In this document: positions 4,457-26,448 of the stretch, piece by piece
Layout of the letters: each line of letters opens with the position of its first letter
Position numbering within the stretch: position 1 is the first letter of the stretch
Source: a virus
Lineage: Duplodnaviria > Caudoviricetes
IMG/VR virus record: IMGVR_UViG_3300028591_000086
Location: 32,001-96,000 of that record
Reading direction: 5' to 3' (one strand)
DNA length: 64,000 nt
Translations under genes and position numbers: made by a program
Notes under the pieces: model-generated
Seen by the model: only the letters and a program-made list of their open reading frames with translations
Told to the model about the DNA's origin: nothing
Databases searched by the model: none

Positions 4457-5521
4457 TTAACGTTTAACAGTATCAAGAGTTTTATTCAGTTCAGGATTAG
4501 CTTTAAATGCTGTATCAATAACATCGATTTTATCTTCTAAGAGAACAGAAGATTTATCGAATCCTTCACTTGAATTAGCTTTTCCCTTAGTATAAGTGTC
4601 TTTGTATGTGATGCTGTCAGCAATTCTGTCAGCAAGTGTCATACCAATTGCACTCTTTCCAAGATTATCATCAGAATCAGTAGGATTAGCTTTAAGCCAA
4701 GTATCATAGATATATGCTGGAAGAACAGCATTGTTAGCACGCTCTTCGTAAAGACCTTCACGGTCAATAATTACAGCAGCTAATCTATCAACTTCTGGCC
4801 CTCTATCAAATGTTCCAGAAAATGTTAAATCGTGTTCAACACCCTGACCTGCTTCACCAAGAGCACCTGCATTTACATGATCATGTTTTGGTGTAGTACA
4901 TACACAATCATGATATATAGCTGCATATTCTATGTCCTCGGGTCTACATGTAGGTCCAAGCAATACATAAAGAATAGTCATTGATTTATTTGGTTGTAAA
5001 TCACGAATATCCTTACCATAGAAATGAGCAGCACCGGTCTTTGGATCGCTCATTCCAAAGTGCCAGTAATCGATTGCTTTACGTACTAACTGACCAGCAG
5101 TTTCAGGTACTTTAATAGTGAAGTCACCATTATTTTCTTTATAGATACCAACATATGTAGAGTTCTGACGAACAACACCATGTTGTTTCTGGAATGTTTC
5201 AAGTTGATAGCTTTGAATTCCTGAGAATTCGAGCGCTGTATCTTCAATAATATAACGCCAAGCTGCTGCAACTTTAGGGTCAAAGAACGGAACGTTCTTG
5301 AGTACTTTAAGAGCAAAACGACCAACCTTAAAAGGTTCACGCATTGCTGTTATAGATGGATCAACTGGCTGAATGCCGTTTTCAGATGCGAGTCTTGAAT
5401 AAACATTACCAGCAAAACCAACTGTACCATGTTCCCATCCAGCAACTACATTAAATCTATCGCCCTTAATTCCGTTAACACCATAGGTATCAGTATTGTT
5501 ATAAATATATCTTGAGCCCAT
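4457..5521 (-). CDS. Tail tube protein (phiKZ/AR9-type)
   Basis: Directly follows the sheath gene. Motifs EFSGI, FTIKVPE and W-x-x-G-x-x-DPKTG resemble jumbo-phage tube proteins. Confidence 0.75.
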   Translation of the reverse strand: MGSRYIYNNTDTYGVNGIKGDRFNVVAGWEHGTVGFAGNVYSRLASENGIQPVDPSITAMREPFKVGRFALKVLKNVPFFDPKVAAAWRYIIEDTALEFSGIQSYQLETFQKQHGVVRQNSTYVGIYKENNGDFTIKVPETAGQLVRKAIDYWHFGMSDPKTGAAHFYGKDIRDLQPNKSMTILYVLLGPTCRPEDIEYAAIYHDCVCTTPKHDHVNAGALGEAGQGVEHDLTFSGTFDRGPEVDRLAAVIIDREGLYEERANNAVLPAYIYDTWLKANPTDSDDNLGKSAIGMTLADRIADSITYKDTYTKGKANSSEGFDKSSVLLEDKIDVIDTAFKANPELNKTLDTVKR

Positions 5522-5533
5522 ATTTATCTCCTA

Positions 5534-7612
5534 TTAGTCGCCAACGATATTATTAGTAGGACGTTTAGCCCTAAGTTCAAGATGGAACTTTTTAGCATAG
5601 TTAGGGAATGTAATATCTACACCAATGTGAGCATTATCTTCCTTAACATCTAACTTAGTCTGATACAACTGGAAATTAATCTTAATTGTTTTAGGAATAG
5701 CTGCTTCAGCAATTCTATCATCAAGATCTTTCTTACAGTTAACCATTGTAGTTGCAATTTCATTTTCATCGTATTTATAGTATGGTGTTACACCTGCTAC
5801 AATTCGAATAATTCTACCTACCACAATAGCATTACGTACAGACATCATTTTAGAATTTTCTACTTCATACTGAGTATCTTCAAGACCATAAACAAGATCT
5901 TTATTCTTATTAAGGTATTGGATATTGTTGATATGAAGTTCTTCTAATGTTGCAATTGTATTTGCTTTATTCTTAACAGCAACCCAGAATGGATTGAAAT
6001 AAGATACACGTCCATGATTAGCACCAGCACGCATCTGGAATGCTCCGCCTACTGTAGCGAAATCATCTGCTAAACCAGCAGCCCAGTCATATGTTGCTGT
6101 TACTACTCTAGGAGTACCGTCTATTTCCTTATCCTTAAGGAGACCAGAATGACCATAGAATGAAACCATAAATGACCATTTACTATTTACATACGTAGTA
6201 AGTTCTCTACATTTAGAAATAGCGTCTCCAGAAGTTCTACCACCTTCGATACCGAAATCAATAGGAAGAGCAATATCTGGACGATATAAAGAGAACTTAG
6301 AAAGAATAGTTTTCTTAACTTCATCTGGATAATTTTCATCAGGAAGAATATCAATATCTGTGATTTTTTCATCAAAAATATCATCGTCTACATCACAGTT
6401 GAAGAAATTAATAAGAAGTTCTTCTTTCTTAGCTCTAGCCATTTCTTCAGTTACTACTGTACCATCGTCGAGAGTATTTCCTACTTCAATACTTCCGTCA
6501 GTTCCGTGATCGAGTGTAATATAACTATTTTCAATATCAATAGAATCAGCTGATGTAACGATCTTGTTATAAGGATTACCATTTTTAAAGATAGCATTAA
6601 GAATATCTATATCGTATGCACTTGCTTCTTCATTAGCACCGGAATCATTAATCTCATTAATAAGAGCATCATATGATTCAGGATAAGTAATAAGTTGGAT
6701 TGTCTTAAGCTCGTTATTATCATCAATATTTCTATAAACACTTCCGAGTGCTTCGGATGTATTATCGGTTGAAGAGAATACAGCATCTTTATTGAAACTG
6801 AAATTGAAGTCTTCACCAGAGAATAATGGTATATATTTACCAGTAGAAGACAATTGATAGAAATACATCACATAGCGTCTTCCATCTACACTCTTTTTAT
6901 CTCTATTTGTTTGTCTAGAAATATGGAATGCAAAATCGTTTCCACCTTTACCACGAGAATAATAATATACTGTAAATAATGGATAGAATTTTCTTTCATT
7001 ATTATTTGCGTCCATTAATGTTTGAACTGAACCATCAAATGCGGTAGGATTACCGTCATTATCAAAATAACCACGATTAGTTAATTCAATAGTTTCAGTT
7101 CTTAAAATAACGCCATTAACTGTAACAGGAATTTCTTCACCGCTTTCAGTAGATCTAACTCTTATTTGAATTTTATTTCCCTCAGTATCAAGCACATATG
7201 CACCTGAACCATAAGAAAGAACAGTTGTTCCATCTTCCGAAATTACAGTGTCGGTACGTTTGTATACTGGGATTGCTGAATCTTTTACAAGCGATACACC
7301 AAATACCGAATACGCTACTTTTGCATCATCTGGGCTTAAAGAGCAGAAGAATACTCTAGCTTTTGATTTAGCGAGACGAAGCGCATGAATATTTGCCTGT
7401 CCGTATTTTTCAAAAGACCCAAAATCATCACCATATTCAGTTTTAAGTGCGCCTGGGGAACGATTTTCAATTATCTTATTCTTCCTTCCACGACCAGAGA
7501 AACCTGCTATTAAAACACCTAAACCAGTGTCAAGGGCAGGAATATCGTTTTCCTGTTCAGGAGCAGATTCATCGAAGAATTCATAATCGAAATTAGGATC
7601 AAAGATAATCAC
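5534..7612 (-). CDS. Contractile tail sheath protein
   Basis: GTG start with GGAGG RBS, 692 aa. Sheath-like N-terminus (GFSGRG...EYG...KYGQ), GTDG, DENYP-x-EVK and C-terminal fold motifs. Paired with the tube gene. Confidence 0.82.
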   Translation of the reverse strand: MIIFDPNFDYEFFDESAPEQENDIPALDTGLGVLIAGFSGRGRKNKIIENRSPGALKTEYGDDFGSFEKYGQANIHALRLAKSKARVFFCSLSPDDAKVAYSVFGVSLVKDSAIPVYKRTDTVISEDGTTVLSYGSGAYVLDTEGNKIQIRVRSTESGEEIPVTVNGVILRTETIELTNRGYFDNDGNPTAFDGSVQTLMDANNNERKFYPLFTVYYYSRGKGGNDFAFHISRQTNRDKKSVDGRRYVMYFYQLSSTGKYIPLFSGEDFNFSFNKDAVFSSTDNTSEALGSVYRNIDDNNELKTIQLITYPESYDALINEINDSGANEEASAYDIDILNAIFKNGNPYNKIVTSADSIDIENSYITLDHGTDGSIEVGNTLDDGTVVTEEMARAKKEELLINFFNCDVDDDIFDEKITDIDILPDENYPDEVKKTILSKFSLYRPDIALPIDFGIEGGRTSGDAISKCRELTTYVNSKWSFMVSFYGHSGLLKDKEIDGTPRVVTATYDWAAGLADDFATVGGAFQMRAGANHGRVSYFNPFWVAVKNKANTIATLEELHINNIQYLNKNKDLVYGLEDTQYEVENSKMMSVRNAIVVGRIIRIVAGVTPYYKYDENEIATTMVNCKKDLDDRIAEAAIPKTIKINFQLYQTKLDVKEDNAHIGVDITFPNYAKKFHLELRAKRPTNNIVGD

Positions 7613-7707: not shown

Positions 7708-7719
7708 CATTTAAATGTT
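7708..7719 (-). promoter_or_regulatory. Late promoter for the sheath-tube operon
   Basis: AACA-TTTAAA-TG, matching the AR9 late consensus AACA-N6-T(A/G). Confidence 0.7.
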
Positions 7720-7764
7720 ATTTTCTTATGAATAGTGGGTTTTTATTTAAAACCTTATTTAGCA

Positions 7765-7859
7765 TTTATATTATATTTGTGACATAGTGTAGAAAGAACT
7801 CAGTGGCGTGGATATATAAAAGCGTTACGACTGATAGTAAATCTATGCGAAAAAGCTTA
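7765..7859 (+). ncRNA. Early promoter plus conserved structured leader RNA, copy 1
   Basis: TATATTAT at 7767-7774, followed by a leader homologous to 25717-25817 with compensatory substitutions in two helices. Confidence 0.7.
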
Positions 7860-7881
7860 AGGAAACATTAGGAGAAACACC

Positions 7882-8127
7882 ATGAAAACTATCGCACAGA
7901 TTAAATTCGAAGAAGTATTGGCTAAGGCTAAAAACGGTACAATCACTATAAATGATTGTATGGCTGTTTATCAGTATGCAGAAAAATTAACAGATAAACA
8001 GCTTGATTGGGTAACCAACATGTGGCAGTGTCTTAAAACTGGTAAGAAATTCGAGTTTAAATCAGAGAGCGAGGATATCCTCGACAGTGGTCTAGTTTAC
8101 AACAACTGCTTCGGCAGCGCTCGTTAA
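7882..8127 (+). CDS. Small early hypothetical protein (81 aa)
   Basis: AGGAG RBS, with its own promoter, leader and terminator. Confidence 0.8.
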   Translation: MKTIAQIKFEEVLAKAKNGTITINDCMAVYQYAEKLTDKQLDWVTNMWQCLKTGKKFEFKSESEDILDSGLVYNNCFGSAR

Positions 8128-8147: not shown

Positions 8148-8184
8148 AACACTACTCGCTCACACCGGGTAGTGTTATTTTTTT
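8148..8184 (+). terminator. Intrinsic terminator
   Basis: AACACTACTCG / CGGGTAGTGTT stem followed by a T-tract. Confidence 0.8.
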
Positions 8185-8239
8185 CTTCAAATTAAATAAC
8201 AAAATATATATTATTAAGTGCTATAATAAGGAGGTCAAA

Positions 8240-8632
8240 ATGAGATTATTTATAGTATTATTATTTTTCGCAGTTTTAACTTATATTTATGGTTGGATAT
8301 TCTATAATTTCGCAGAAATATACAACTCGGTATTATATAAAATAGGTCTTAATAAATTATATAAAAGTATAAAAATCACTACAACTTGCATACAATTAAC
8401 TACATGTGTAGACGTTAAAGAGGTCGTCGGTTCGAAAGAATACGACGAGCTCATAAATATGGCTAAAACTAAAATGGCTAAACTTAATAAGTCATATACA
8501 GAAATAATGTCTAGAATATGCAAAGAACCTACTAAATTTAAAAGCATATACAATCCACAATATTTAAAATGCATAAAATATGCTGGCAAATTAAAGAATT
8601 TATATTGTGAAAACTTTGCACATTATTATTAA
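8240..8632 (+). CDS. Hypothetical membrane protein (start corrected from 8138)
   Basis: AAGGAGG RBS before the ATG at 8240. N-terminal hydrophobic helix. TATATTAT early motif at 8207-8214. Confidence 0.75.
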   Translation: MRLFIVLLFFAVLTYIYGWIFYNFAEIYNSVLYKIGLNKLYKSIKITTTCIQLTTCVDVKEVVGSKEYDELINMAKTKMAKLNKSYTEIMSRICKEPTKFKSIYNPQYLKCIKYAGKLKNLYCENFAHYY

Positions 8633-8637
8633 ATTTT

Positions 8638-8670
8638 AATAAAACTGCACCTTTTAGGTGCAGTTTTATT
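8638..8670. terminator. Bidirectional terminator
   Basis: AATAAAACTGCACCT / AGGTGCAGTTTTATT inverted repeat between convergent genes. Confidence 0.85.
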
Positions 8671-8675
8671 TTTTA

Positions 8676-10940
8676 TTAATGTAAATGACTAAAAAAATAC
8701 CTCATATCATTTTGTAAATCATTAGCTTCATAACTCTGTTGCTGACGAAGAATCTGACTTCGGTTACTTTGTTCAACAACATTAACATCCAAATCTTCAT
8801 GCATATTTCGAGTATATTCTGATTGTTGATGTTTCTCATCATACAACATATCTTCTTCCCTTTGCATTTCAGTAGGATCCAATGTATAAAGTTTACCGTT
8901 GTCATTCTGTCGCTTCATTTGTTCTTCTATATCAGGATCATATCTTCCGCCCATCATACCATACATACTTTCAAAAATATCATCAGCAGACGTTTTATGA
9001 TTTTTCATCAGTTTATTAGTTTTTATTATATCGTTGTCGATGACACCACTATTCATCTGTTGTCTTTGTAAAAGTAATTGATTCGTTTTAGACATCTCCA
9101 TTTCAGCAAATTCAGAATTCTTATCTCTAATTTTCTTTATCTTTTTATTATCTTCTATATCTGCTAGTTTTTCATTAGTTATACTTCGCATTTTAGATTC
9201 GTCTCCTTTATTCTTTTCGAATTCATGAACCATACAACCTATAGTCAAAGGATCAATAAATTTCTCTTTATAACTTCCAAATAATAGGAACCATCTTGTA
9301 AACAAGTAAGAAATTAACAAGTCATCATGACCACCAACAGGATGGTCGACCCTACCTGTTCTAGTAGTTATCAACGCTTTTATTTCATCTATGATTACTC
9401 TATCATATATTCTATCATAACTATCGTCAACAGCTATTTTAAGAATCTGACCATATATCATTTTTCTTGCTTGTTCGGTAGTGTTAATACCGAATTCTTT
9501 AATTTTTCCTGTTTTAGGATCCGTTGGCCCATATATTCGTGACGCTAAAGAAAAATCTATCTGAACTAATCTATCTGCGACGGTAGCACCATTTAAGTTA
9601 CGTTCTATAACTAATATAGATCTATAGAAGTATTTTCTCATCAAATCAGCTAACATGTCAGCGAATAACATTGTGCTAAACATATTTGATCTTATTGTTC
9701 CCACTATTTCATAGGTATATGGATCTAATATCGCTATAGCACTATAGTCTGAACCTACGTTATTTGCACAGTCACAACCTAAGATATAAGGAATAGACCA
9801 ATCTATTGTTTCAGGATCTTTATACATTTTCATCCTAAATACTTTATTTAAAATTACTGTATGTATAGGAGATCGTTTGTTTTTATCAAGTAAAGTAAGC
9901 ACTTGTTGTCCAAGTGGGTGAGTAGTAGATACGGCTTTCCATTTACATAGAACTTCACGATCTATTGCATCCTGATCATAATCCAGAGCTTTACATTGCT
10001 CTTCATAATATGTATCATCTTTACCTAAATCATAATATTGATATTCGATATGAATAAAATCGTTTTTAGCGTTATTTCTAATAAGAGCTTTAACTTCATC
10101 TATAGATAAATCGTATAATTCTTCTGAGAAGTCATAACAGTTATTCATGAAGTTATGTGCGTAAACACCTTCATCGGTATTAAGATAACCTGATGTAGTA
10201 GTTATTCCAATAAAATGCGGATTACCGTTTTTCTCAGCACGTCTAGCAACTTCCATATACTGTAATACAGTAGATTGATATTGTTGTTTAATGTGCGGAA
10301 TAAATGCAAACTCGTCATAATTTACTACTGGTGTAGAACGTCCACGGAACTTCTGATTAGCTATTTCTTCACTCTTAGCAGGAGCCATTCGAGAAACATC
10401 GTTTCCTAGTAATTTAAAACCTATAGTTTCACCATTTTTATCACGATTACTGTTTAATTTTAAATATGTAGGAAGTGCATCTCTAATAGCCTTAATACGA
10501 CCCATATTATCCGATAACTTATCATCACTCTGTGCATATAACATCATATTTGAGTTTCTTGAACCAAAATATAATATCCACACAAATATTACCATTTCAC
10601 CGACAGTCTTACCTGTCTGACGAGGTAATATCACATAATGATTAAGATTATTAAGCGCACACCAAGATAATGCTAAGTTACCTAAGTTCAAATCGTATCT
10701 AATTAAACCTGACGCAGGAATCCTAACTATTTCTCGCAAAAAATACCAAGGATTAGTTGATACTTCCACAAGAATACGTTGTTTCTGTTCTTCTGTTAAA
10801 TTTTCTTCATCAAAAGGATCTATATCTTTAAGAGTCTCATCGTATAATTCTAGAAAGAAAGAATTATTCTTAACTCCTTTTTTCTTTAAAAATAAATGTA
10901 CTTTAAGAAAGCTGTTATTAGATGTATTATAATGTATCAT
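8676..10940 (-). CDS. terL: Terminase large subunit (probable start MIHYNTSN at 10940)
   Basis: Walker A LPRQTGKT, Walker B VNYDE, ITTT coupling motif, nuclease acidic motifs LGCD and HDD. GAGGT RBS before 10940. GACT-TTAAAA-TG promoter variant at 10950-10961. Confidence 0.92.
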   Translation of the reverse strand: MIHYNTSNNSFLKVHLFLKKKGVKNNSFFLELYDETLKDIDPFDEENLTEEQKQRILVEVSTNPWYFLREIVRIPASGLIRYDLNLGNLALSWCALNNLNHYVILPRQTGKTVGEMVIFVWILYFGSRNSNMMLYAQSDDKLSDNMGRIKAIRDALPTYLKLNSNRDKNGETIGFKLLGNDVSRMAPAKSEEIANQKFRGRSTPVVNYDEFAFIPHIKQQYQSTVLQYMEVARRAEKNGNPHFIGITTTSGYLNTDEGVYAHNFMNNCYDFSEELYDLSIDEVKALIRNNAKNDFIHIEYQYYDLGKDDTYYEEQCKALDYDQDAIDREVLCKWKAVSTTHPLGQQVLTLLDKNKRSPIHTVILNKVFRMKMYKDPETIDWSIPYILGCDCANNVGSDYSAIAILDPYTYEIVGTIRSNMFSTMLFADMLADLMRKYFYRSILVIERNLNGATVADRLVQIDFSLASRIYGPTDPKTGKIKEFGINTTEQARKMIYGQILKIAVDDSYDRIYDRVIIDEIKALITTRTGRVDHPVGGHDDLLISYLFTRWFLLFGSYKEKFIDPLTIGCMVHEFEKNKGDESKMRSITNEKLADIEDNKKIKKIRDKNSEFAEMEMSKTNQLLLQRQQMNSGVIDNDIIKTNKLMKNHKTSADDIFESMYGMMGGRYDPDIEEQMKRQNDNGKLYTLDPTEMQREEDMLYDEKHQQSEYTRNMHEDLDVNVVEQSNRSQILRQQQSYEANDLQNDMRYFFSHLH

Positions 10941-23566: not shown

Positions 23567-25648
23567 TTAAATTTTAGAAAAATCTACAGCATGTTTTAAA
23601 GGCGCAGCTATTGATTTTGCTACAATTCGTTCAATGTTATAACTTCCTAAAGAATTTTCAGCATTTCCAAAATCAAAATAATTTCCAATATTGAAACGTC
23701 TAAATATAGTATCCAGTACAAAATATATAGTGGCATATATTGCTACCGCATAAATCTCAGGATTCGATTCACTTTCAGATCTAACGTCATATGCCATATC
23801 TATAGCATTATCTATATATTCATTACCTGTATATTTTTCAAGACTACCACCAAGTTTAGTGATAACGTATTTAGGCATTTCTTTATGCTCATAATGTTTA
23901 ACTATATCACTAAATGTATCTTTTCCATAGAAAGCACATTGTGTTATAGTTTTACCATTTTTAGTTGCACATAATTTGATAAACGTATCTTTATCAATCA
24001 TCGGATAATGTCTATTGAATCTATCGATATTCTTGTCTTCTGTTATGAACAAAATTTGTTCATATTTATAATGCTCATACATAGCAGTATCACTTTCAAT
24101 GATATTACCAATACCATATCTAACAAATTCAATATAGAACTTCAAAACATCGTCTACTTCGAGTTGAAGTTCTTTCAATGTTGAAAGCACACCTTCACGA
24201 CCCATACAATAATTTGGACGATTTGGTTGTATATAGAACTTACCAGAACTAAACCATGTATGATATAGTTTAAGAATGATAAGGTCTAAAATATCTATTG
24301 CTCCATTAATTTCGTTATGAGCTTTCTTGTTTCTCTGTGTAGATCTAGCATTAAGAATTCGGAATGCACTAGCCATTAAAACTAATTGTAAAATAAATCC
24401 CGACTCAACTTTAGAGAATTGATCTGTATCCTCTACACCACTAACAAGATTTCTTACTTCACCAAATGCTCTATCAATATCTTCATTTGAATATTGTGAT
24501 TTCATACATGATTCAAGATAGGTCTTAATACCAGGAAGTACAAACTCTTTTGAACTAAGTTTCTTTTCTTCTGTTTCCGATTCAAGATTATAACTTCTGA
24601 GATAAGTTAAACCGAAACTGAAAATATTAGGATTATCTTTGTTGATTATATTTGCTGAACGGAAATACATTACGTCCAACAAAGGATCGCATTTATCTGT
24701 GAATGATTCGATAGAAATACCTGCAGCAAAAGAAGTATCCATAAAATCAGGATCTAAAACAGATTTAATCTGTTCAGCTGTTTCAGTTGTACTTGACATC
24801 AGTTTAGAAACGAATGTTTCAGAAATATCATACATTGTTCCTATTAAACTGTCCATACCTTTAAGACCAGATGTTCTATTATAGAACTGAGTCATTCTAT
24901 AGAACACGTACACCAAAGATATGATATGTTTCTTTTCTTCATTGCCTAAGAATGCTTCTCTGAGAATACGTTCGTATAATGTCAATGAAGAATTAGATTT
25001 AGGATTCTTCATAAATGAGAATAAATCTAAATCTTTGTTAGACAACTGAGAAAAAAGAATAAATATTCCATATAAAGTAAACATCAAACCAATATATGCA
25101 CAGTAGAAAATACACATATTACACATATCATCAGACATTTTACTTTTAGCAATATTCTCTTTATTCTCTTTAATGATCTCAGATGCTTTGAGATATTGCA
25201 TATCGAATGGAAGATATGAAGATTGATCAATTGCTTCTTTTTTGAAATTGTTTATTACTTCAAGAAGTTTATCGTCCAAATTAATGAGTTGATTATAATA
25301 GTTTCCTAAATAAGGTGCAACACCATTTGAATCTATAGAAACACTATTCCAATCTGCTCTAGTTAAACAAACCATAAGATTTGCTAAAATAGTTCTACCA
25401 TATTCATAGAAGAATTTACCATAATCTTCACTTGTATATACTGAGATATCATGTGTAGGAAGTTCTTCTACGTATTTATAATTCAATTCACCAAAGTTAA
25501 TAGTATAATCTTGGATTTCATCTGCCAAAGTTATACTATCGATTCCTCTAGCTTTAAAAACAGGTCTACCTGCTCCTTTACAGCCGAGAGCAATCTGTGT
25601 GGCAAATTTATATGAAAGAAACGGGTTATTTGCATCAATTGTTTGCAT
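23567..25648 (-). CDS. Hypothetical virion/head protein (693 aa)
   Basis: First gene of the capsid operon, with an AGGAG RBS and a late promoter upstream. Confidence 0.6.
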   Translation of the reverse strand: MQTIDANNPFLSYKFATQIALGCKGAGRPVFKARGIDSITLADEIQDYTINFGELNYKYVEELPTHDISVYTSEDYGKFFYEYGRTILANLMVCLTRADWNSVSIDSNGVAPYLGNYYNQLINLDDKLLEVINNFKKEAIDQSSYLPFDMQYLKASEIIKENKENIAKSKMSDDMCNMCIFYCAYIGLMFTLYGIFILFSQLSNKDLDLFSFMKNPKSNSSLTLYERILREAFLGNEEKKHIISLVYVFYRMTQFYNRTSGLKGMDSLIGTMYDISETFVSKLMSSTTETAEQIKSVLDPDFMDTSFAAGISIESFTDKCDPLLDVMYFRSANIINKDNPNIFSFGLTYLRSYNLESETEEKKLSSKEFVLPGIKTYLESCMKSQYSNEDIDRAFGEVRNLVSGVEDTDQFSKVESGFILQLVLMASAFRILNARSTQRNKKAHNEINGAIDILDLIILKLYHTWFSSGKFYIQPNRPNYCMGREGVLSTLKELQLEVDDVLKFYIEFVRYGIGNIIESDTAMYEHYKYEQILFITEDKNIDRFNRHYPMIDKDTFIKLCATKNGKTITQCAFYGKDTFSDIVKHYEHKEMPKYVITKLGGSLEKYTGNEYIDNAIDMAYDVRSESESNPEIYAVAIYATIYFVLDTIFRRFNIGNYFDFGNAENSLGSYNIERIVAKSIAAPLKHAVDFSKI

Positions 25649-25676: not shown

Positions 25677-25688
25677 CATTAAAATGTT
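25677..25688 (-). promoter_or_regulatory. Late promoter for the capsid operon
   Basis: AACA-TTTTAA-TG. Confidence 0.7.
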
Positions 25689-25716: not shown

Positions 25717-25817
25717 TTTATATTATATTTATGACATAGTGTAGAAAAAAACTCTATGGGGTGTATAAATAAAGGCCTTACGATAGATAGTAATTCTATA
25801 CGAACAATAAAAGCTTA
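25717..25817 (+). ncRNA. Early promoter plus conserved structured leader RNA, copy 2
   Basis: TATATTAT at 25719-25726. Homologous to 7765-7859 with covarying stems. Confidence 0.7.
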
Positions 25818-25828
25818 GAGGTATTATT

Positions 25829-26350
25829 ATGGAAGAAGAAAAGAAAACAACAACACAACCACAGAAATTGGAATTTAAGTTTGAAGGTGAGAAAGCTGAG
25901 AAAACATTCTCAACTTTAATCACATACCTTAGTTCTAATAGTAAAAATTGGAACAGTGACAGTATTTCAAATGTTATAAATACACATAATAAATATGTGC
26001 AAGACATCCAAACTAAAGTTGACAAATGGGTTAATGAGCATGAAAATGATGGAAAATGGTACATTCCAGAAATCAATGTTATTCCAGACGTTTCAACAAA
26101 AATGACTACATATACTGTAACTGGTGGTATGAGAAAAGTATTTGCAAAAATGCTAAAACTTGAAACATCTGTTGTAACTAGTGCATCAACTGGTCCAGGT
26201 GAACTGATTGACTTGGATAGTATTTTTGTAAAACCAGCAAAAGGTGTTATGCGCATACGCATTAAATATGATGTGTCACACGGTGACCTTTATAAAATGT
26301 CTACAGAATTGAAAAAAGAATTAACTATCAAAGTTGATGGTAAATATTGA
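25829..26350 (+). CDS. Early hypothetical protein (173 aa)
   Basis: GAGGT RBS, with its own promoter, leader and 3' hairpin. Confidence 0.8.
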   Translation: MEEEKKTTTQPQKLEFKFEGEKAEKTFSTLITYLSSNSKNWNSDSISNVINTHNKYVQDIQTKVDKWVNEHENDGKWYIPEINVIPDVSTKMTTYTVTGGMRKVFAKMLKLETSVVTSASTGPGELIDLDSIFVKPAKGVMRIRIKYDVSHGDLYKMSTELKKELTIKVDGKY

Positions 26351-26403: not shown

Positions 26404-26448
26404 AACCCGAAAGCACGAAAATGTGAGTAGGGTTATTTTTTATTTTTT
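26404..26448 (+). terminator. Terminator-like hairpin with an internal GAA/AGUA loop
   Basis: AACCC-GAA-AG-CAC-GAAAAT-GTG-AGTA-GGGTT followed by T-tracts. Confidence 0.6.

Follow-up and report, generated by a model that had tools for sequence, protein, structure and literature searches.

In giant phages with RNA polymerases of their own, control of early gene expression is commonly ascribed mainly to the promoter. Early promoters can also be followed directly by cis-acting structured RNAs that recur within a genome, as with the nut sites of lambda and the put RNA of HK022. The put RNA consists of two hairpins, is located just downstream of PL and PR, and causes host RNA polymerase to read through terminators. 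Relevant, too, is the loop-E (sarcin–ricin) motif, a common protein-docking module whose consensus sets GAA opposite AGUA and whose geometry features a bulged G, a trans U-A and a sheared G-A.

The early promoters of the Bacillus jumbo phage AR9 have been mapped as AAATATATATTAT-(6N)-G+1, and the late ones as AACA-(6N)-TA/G (Lavysh et al. 2017, PMC5312081); the same paper also notes a motif predicted in the early 5′ UTRs and left unexplained. Certain T4-type phages, RB49 and phi1, carry PeSL cassettes, in which an early-promoter module precedes orphan genes and modules are shuffled (Arbiol et al. 2010, PMC2839356). The stem-loop of a PeSL is a GC-rich terminator or attenuator that lies upstream of the start site, spans it, or stands just before it (PMC2839356). 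Finally, the mRNAs of Bacillus aprE, gsiB and ermC, and of phage SP82, are stabilized by stem-loops and by ribosome binding at the Shine–Dalgarno (SD) sequence (reviewed in PMC7509114).

The window analyzed here is a stretch of 64,000 nt, bases 32001–96000 of a 195-kb IMG/VR record that is roughly 70% complete. An earlier note on this DNA described a structured leader in two copies of ~95 nt, 18 kb apart. Both copies are where it put them, but the genome holds three, not two. A covariance model of the kind that note had proposed, built from the copies and run over the whole 195-kb record, found the third at genome 147185–147268 (G000:C1:147187), 5′ of a 184-aa gene; nothing else matched. Copies 1 and 2 are homologous, with 85% identity over about 82–88 nt after the promoter spacer, and the sequence they share ends at ~7862 and ~25820, respectively, a few bases 5′ of the ribosome-binding site (RBS). 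The copies do lie, as claimed, between an early-type promoter and the RBS of small genes that are unrelated to one another. Six additional distinct copies come from closely related metagenomic phages, on contigs reached via homologues of the proteins that adjoin the leader, so that nine distinct sequences are available in all. One of the six heads a fourth unrelated gene (114 aa, in the relative L101). Coordinates are collected in the table.

Table. Features of the leader cassettes and their neighbors. Positions are those of the window unless marked 'genome'; promoters, transcripts and RNA structures are predicted.
Feature	Position	Strand	Remarks
TTATTTAAA element, copy 1	7743-7751		~13 nt upstream of box; read from sequence
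Early-type promoter, copy 1	7765-7780	+	box TTTATATTAT 7765-7774; variable 6-nt spacer 7775-7780
Leader RNA, copy 1	7781-7862	+	core type A
Copy 1, 5′ single strand GACAUA	7781-7786	+	
Copy 1, P1	7787-7794 with 7841-7848	+	8 bp
Copy 1, internal loop	7795-7799 opposite 7835-7840	+	AGAAC opposite UAGUAA
Copy 1, P2	7800-7804 with 7830-7834	+	5 bp
Copy 1, ACG bulge	7827-7829	+	3 nt
Copy 1, P3	7805-7809 with 7822-7826	+	5 bp
Copy 1, AU-rich loop	7810-7821	+	12 nt
Copy 1, tail	up to 7862	+	CGAA...CUUAAGG
81-aa orphan gene, copy 1	7882-8127	+	SD AGGAG at ~7871-7875; ORF list and translation
Intrinsic terminator closing cassette 1	8148-8176	+	
Early-type promoter, copy 2	25717-25732	+	box TTTATATTAT 25717-25726; spacer 25727-25732
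Leader RNA, copy 2	25733-25820	+	core type B
Copy 2, P1	25739-25747 with 25794-25801	+	
Copy 2, P2	25753-25757 with 25783-25787	+	
Copy 2, P3	25758-25762 with 25775-25779	+	
Copy 2, ACG bulge	25780-25782	+	
Copy 2, UAGUAA	25788-25793	+	
173-aa orphan gene, copy 2	25829-26350	+	ORF list
Terminator-like module after 173-aa gene	26404-26441	+	hairpin and T-run
184-aa gene, copy 3	genome 147286-147840 (L049:1602-2156)		
Sheath gene	5534-7612	-	PHROG 3242
AR9-type late motif AACA-N6-TG	7708-7719	-	~95 nt upstream of sheath gene; divergent from copy 1
693-aa gene	23567-25648	-	divergent from copy 2
AR9-type late motif AACA-N6-TG	25677-25688	-	~30 nt upstream of 693-aa gene; divergent from copy 2

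The candidate promoters follow the logic of AR9: an early TATATTAT-(6N)-G+1 arrangement, with late AACA-(6N)-TG motifs facing the structural genes (the one before the sheath gene is kept in the relative L062). TATATTAT-(6N)-G is present in 9/9 copies; the box is invariant, the 6-nt spacer occurs in five forms, and invariance resumes at the G that would be +1 by the AR9 rule, from which the RNA would start (G7781 in copy 1, G25733 in copy 2). Like AR9, the phage encodes pieces of a multisubunit RNA polymerase: a beta-like ORF of 785 aa (PF00562, over the cut-off, at genome 173 kb) and a beta′-like ORF of 531 aa (PF00623, 21.5 bits and so below the cut-off, at genome 98 kb). Its terminase is closest (about 30–33%) to those of AR9/PBS1-like Bacillus jumbo phages and related jumbo phages of Staphylococcus. 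Unlike AR9, the phage has not kept the upstream half of the consensus, AAATA, which in the copies is replaced by T-rich sequence. The promoter of copy 1 also scores as sigma-70-like (TTTAAA-17-TATTAT), with the same start predicted.

Because conservation sets in at the predicted +1, the conserved RNA would begin with the very first transcribed base: GACAUA, unpaired, and then P1. Starts had been forecast near 7779 and 25731, within 2 nt of the positions at which conservation in fact begins. We infer that the leader is the 5′-terminal part of early mRNAs—the 5′ end, the RNA itself and its early timing all being predictions from the DNA. The element tags only a subset of early-type promoters: about 20 other intergenic TATATTAT sites in the whole record are followed by a leader of 12–70 nt, an SD and an ORF, without it. 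AR9 differs here again, for the 39 early-type leaders extracted from its genome share no long repeated element.

All nine copies fold as a single interrupted hairpin of ~62 nt comprising P1 (8 bp), P2 (5 bp) and P3 (5 bp). ViennaRNA returns the identical fold from copies 1 and 2 taken singly (−13.6 and −15.4 kcal/mol), and RNAalifold, given the alignment, independently recovers the same 18 pairs. The helices reported earlier are correct, as are the substitutions quoted for them: UCAGU/ACUGA becomes UCUAU/AUAGA, GGCGU/GCGUU becomes GGGGU/GCCUU, and a U-G pair of the outer helix becomes U-A. Copies 1 and 3 differ at 11 of 62 nt, and 8 of these differences fall within stems, yet 17 of 17 pairs are kept, a pattern that random substitution yields with P = 1.3e-5 (simulation, a million trials). 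Across the nine distinct copies and 18 pairs, standard pairs occupy 98.8% of the pair cells. Three pairs display double-sided compensation (A-U/U-A, G-C/A-U and C-G/G-C) and eight display one-sided changes among G-U, A-U and G-C. Column shuffles never match the observed pairing or covariation score (0/500), and if the partner strand is slid by 1–3 columns, pairing falls to 27–54%.

The minus strand folds no better than shuffles, and five or six of the pairs are G-U, so the structure belongs to the transcript of the plus strand. Support for the fold is evolutionary, not thermodynamic: single-sequence stability is unremarkable (z scores of −0.7 and −2.1), and within 130-nt contexts the hairpin is not always the minimum free energy structure. 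The pairing statistics bear out the proposal of a selected plus-strand RNA fold: as comparison of the copies shows, selection has kept the fold intact at the level of the RNA.

Three deep alleles can be told apart among the copies. Type A comprises copy 1 and most of the relatives, type B copies 2 and 3, and variant C a single sequence (L101:2470-2552). At a pair where type A has G-C and type B has A-U, variant C has G-U, which on the alignment reads as the classical intermediate between the two, and it has A-U and U-A where the other copies have G-U and U-G. The lineage is narrow, the alleles are three, and gene conversion has homogenized them; the compensatory events that can be counted as independent are therefore few. 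Conservation in the nine copies is as high in the unpaired parts as in the stems: GACAUA, AGUA, CGAA and CUUA are each kept in 9/9, and GAA in 8/9 (AAA in one copy). Since the carriers are close strains, with neighboring genes 93–99% identical (98–99% for the 328-aa neighbor), the near-identity of the leaders represents background conservation rather than exceptional constraint. Two parts had been called invariant and are not: in L101:2470-2552 the ACG bulge is replaced by UU, and in one relative the UAGUAA strand of the internal loop reads UAGUAG.

The internal loop, AGAAC opposite UAGUAA and flanked by helices, matches the loop-E/sarcin–ricin consensus, with its GAA and AGUA, as a match of letters only, and is in that sense loop-E-like. 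Four other readings were considered and rejected. An alternative register of P1, CAUAG/CUAUG, is broken by the G-to-A change of type B, which keeps P1 as proposed. A K-turn at the ACG bulge fails for want of tandem G-A pairs after the bulge. A mini-ORF at the start, NTG-ACA-TAG, has its first two bases before the predicted +1 and is preceded by no SD, and the 12-nt loop shows no consistent complementarity to the 5′ GACAUA with which it might have formed a pseudoknot.

The lack of a known counterpart, as the first reading had it, holds for Rfam 15 at gathering thresholds over the whole window. When the two copies alone were compared with Rfam 15 at E values up to 10, the one match was to RefA1, a chance match of 11.7 bits where the threshold is 94 bits. 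Neither locus drew a BLAST match from 50,697 phage records, and the covariance model found nothing in AR9, Goe21, BpSp or Staphylococcus phage S6. Three exact-pattern scans of IMG/VR and one of JGI metagenomes gave 44, 1, 29 and 6 loci, all of them judged, by covariance-model scoring or by eye, to be chance matches. Scans of IMG/VR anchored on the sheath protein and on the 693-aa protein brought up no relatives. The phages L061 and L062, whose sheaths are 66–68% identical, are without the element in the 13–22 kb examined, and a second covariance model, built from all nine copies, added no further copies. The leader element is confined to one phage lineage. We regard it as a genuine, selected and uncatalogued fold at the 5′ end of what are predicted to be early messages, and as part of a mobile promoter–leader module.

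The cassettes share a common layout: an upstream terminator or T-run, the TTATTTAAA element, the promoter box and the leader, then a single gene with a terminator behind it. Copies 1 and 2 stand back-to-back with leftward genes. The sheath identity proposed for the neighbor of copy 1 is supported by its PHROG match; that of capsid, proposed for the 693-aa neighbor of copy 2, is supported by no search. The 81-aa protein belongs to no PHROG or Pfam family, the 173-aa protein to none at significance in either collection, and the 184-aa protein matches no family or fold; no function can be named for the downstream proteins from Pfam, PHROGs or the ESM Atlas.

The 184-aa gene is hypervariable, its product being 58–87% identical between strains (L101, L104, L105, L106) while the adjoining 328-aa virion protein is 98–99% identical, and the 1447-aa protein 93%. 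At least one cassette gene thus evolves much faster than its neighbors, and the variability, judged by identity values, is of the pattern expected of an arms-race gene.

Behind cassette 1 lies a second early cassette, with a short leader that is without the element: TATATTAT at 8207, a 130-aa gene at 8240–8632 whose product has an N-terminal hydrophobic segment, and a strong bidirectional terminator at 8638–8670. The terminator-like module at 26404–26441 is itself repeated. It has an ACCY...GGGTT stem and an inner CAC/GTG stem followed by a T-run, and stands behind unrelated small early genes; a further copy occurs at genome 185006–185045, a remnant at genome 143125–143145, and another copy behind the 114-aa cassette gene of L101 (about 2925–2968). 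Because this module recurs behind unrelated early genes, some cassettes would share both a 5′ and a 3′ module.

Types and loci do not stay together. The relative L100 combines a type A core, in which two private changes preserve pairing, with flanks and a tail that are those of locus 2. Locus 3 is type B in this genome, whereas L101, L104 and L106 have type A there. A switch of type among copies is also seen in the spacer that separates TTATTTAAA from the box. In L101 the leader and the 114-aa gene sit between a 779-aa and a 430-aa gene; this genome lacks the cassette, and only the 3′ half of its terminator is left at the site, at genome 143.1 kb. Contig L106 has the sheath-side flank joined to a homologue of the 184-aa gene (58% identity); the junction is a genuine swap or else a chimera that arose in assembly through the repeat. 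As the sequences show it, the module has been exchanged between loci by recombination or gene conversion, and cassettes have been gained and lost between strains. The suggestion that the repeat might serve as a recombination handle is thus upheld in practice, by the mosaic copies and by the leader–gene cassette present in L101 and missing here, although such use is presumably a consequence of repetition and not the function selected for. The mobility of promoter and leader suggests a concrete route for the insertion and exchange of accessory genes.

In L062, the slot divergent from the sheath (at 10001; 66% identical to ours) is occupied, not by the leader and the 81-aa gene, but by a 54-aa Cys/Gly-rich ORF without a leader (L062:9646-9810, minus strand). 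L101 also contains a stretch of ~2.2 kb without called genes, at 4492–6665, between genes of 57 and 149 aa.

What might the leader do? With moderate confidence we favor a cis-acting module of the 5′ UTR that a factor reads, probably through the loop-E-like loop, and that sets how stable, or how well translated, a subset of early messages is. Fused to an AR9-type early promoter, presumably one used by the virion RNA polymerase, the hairpin would begin 6 nt after the start; behind it would come a short linker rich in A and then the SD-like box CUUARRGG (~+76). Promoter and leader together would form a portable module that fronts unrelated accessory genes with terminators of their own, and the hairpin would act in cis, after transcription. 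GACAUA, the GAA/AGUA internal loop, and the CGAA that follows P1 would offer a surface on which a factor of host or phage could dock, and the docked factor would then set the lifetime, or the translation, of the messages that bear the leader.

In its placing of a hairpin from +7 and of CUUARRGG at about +76, both counted from the predicted start, the leader would resemble the 5′ stabilizers of Gram-positive bacteria. A hairpin combined with an SD-like box is a known stabilizer architecture in low-GC Gram-positive bacteria and in phage SP82; this, with the conserved unpaired bases, leads us to favor a cis-acting 5′ UTR module for stability or translation. In copy 2 the box, as the conserved CUUAGAGG of the tail, doubles as the real SD of the 173-aa gene; in the other copies CUUARRGG precedes a second SD. 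Strong SDs of the AGGAG type fit a low-GC Gram-positive host. The comparison is imperfect, however: the 6 unpaired nt at the 5′ end of the leader, unlike the best 5′-terminal protective hairpins, speak against the stabilizer form of this reading. Against the factor-read module in general is the weakness of the hairpin (−13.6 to −15.4 kcal/mol).

A more specific version can be imagined, tentatively, though we consider it somewhat unlikely: the hairpin may be a phage-specific address tag, its loop-E-like loop and GACAUA read by a phage protein or a hijacked host protein, and a small regulon of fast-evolving early accessory genes may in this way be singled out for protection from decay, preferential translation or timed shut-off. 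If so, a portable RNA module would define a regulon at the post-transcriptional level. A selected leader on some early promoters points, in any event, to a second, post-transcriptional layer of control. At about 70 nt the leader is compact, and its features lend themselves to testing: three helices, a loop-E-like loop, and a fixed (predicted) 5′ end.

Could the leader, instead of being a module for stability or translation, be a site of endonucleolytic processing? The helix would be cut by host RNase III, or by a nuclease of the phage, to mature the message or to shut it off later. Repeated, sequence-conserved, internally looped hairpins in early transcripts bring to mind T7 early RNA with its RNase III hairpins and SP82 with its Bs-RNase III sites, where cleavage falls within an internally looped helix of roughly 20 bp, and the leader offers about 18 bp together with a 5 × 6 internal loop, possibly stacked. 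Those sites, however, lie between the cistrons of long polycistronic RNAs, whereas the leader is at the extreme 5′ end of one-gene units, and its helix is short and G-U-rich for an RNase III substrate. Processing seems unlikely to us.

Giant phages 201phi2-1 and phiKZ make small RNAs derived from 5′ UTRs (PMC11512511), and the several near-identical copies of the leader, with conserved loops, could be taken for another instance: a multicopy small RNA, released from the 5′ UTR, that acts in trans on host or phage targets, the genes downstream merely sharing its promoter. This we find decidedly improbable, for there is no terminator or U-run between the hairpin and the RBS, the conserved tail of copy 2 is the gene's own SD, and the conserved single strands are so short and AT-rich that they suggest no target.

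A different view is that the repeat has no function as RNA, and is the homology arm of a mobile promoter cassette like PeSL, with a hairpin that is incidental or acts as DNA. The likeness to PeSL is plain: both are repeated early-promoter modules in front of orphans, an upstream terminator is often part of the unit, and genes are gained, lost and shuffled between close strains here too. Mosaic copies and gene conversion, gain and loss of cassettes between strains, and the closeness of all the carriers would suit a mere homology arm. Yet neutral repeats would not put 8 of 11 differences in stems with no pair broken, G-U intermediates work on one strand only, and recombination needs homology, not a fold. 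The leader differs from PeSL stem-loops, too, in showing RNA-specific covariation, and in position: in the predicted transcript its fold spans +7 to +68, with A-rich sequence and no U-tract behind it. We find it hard to credit, then, that the structure is of no account as RNA.

Processive antitermination, in which the nascent leader would bind its own polymerase and alter the response to terminators or pauses downstream, has the analogy with put RNA in its favor. Both are structured RNAs situated directly after early promoters, in several copies per genome, and the leader conserves unpaired bases along with its structure; moreover, each first gene is closed by a terminator, past which cassettes 1 and 3 have further genes on the same strand. 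The leader is one interrupted hairpin, however, not a pair of them. A second conserved hairpin before the RBS was sought by conservation, by RNAalifold and in 130-nt folds, and none was found, so the two-stem-loop architecture of put is absent. The polymerase is probably that of the phage, and the downstream layout needs no read-through. In cassettes 1 and 2, read-through would meet bidirectional terminators and convergent late genes; in cassette 3, it would express an operon of virion proteins early; and the gene beyond the terminator of cassette 1 has a promoter of its own. Antitermination is thus very improbable indeed. A ligand-sensing riboswitch or self-cleaving ribozyme can practically be dismissed, even though the conserved internal loop and bulge make a compact fold and the Rfam negative leaves room for an undescribed class, because the fold lacks an expression platform (it takes in neither the SD nor the start codon) and has no conserved alternative terminator or anti-SD pairing, because the unrelated orphans downstream have no metabolic theme in common, and because the sequence of the bulge is replaceable.

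Finally, the six loci picked up by the pattern scan of the JGI metagenome (L094–L099; Ga0131853, Ga0123352-4, Ga0136643) proved to be copies of one unrelated element of ~200 bp, which the pattern for the 3′ half of the leader had matched by chance. All six contigs end in it, and it has long inverted repeats around an AT-rich center; it looks like the terminus of a mobile element or of a linear replicon.
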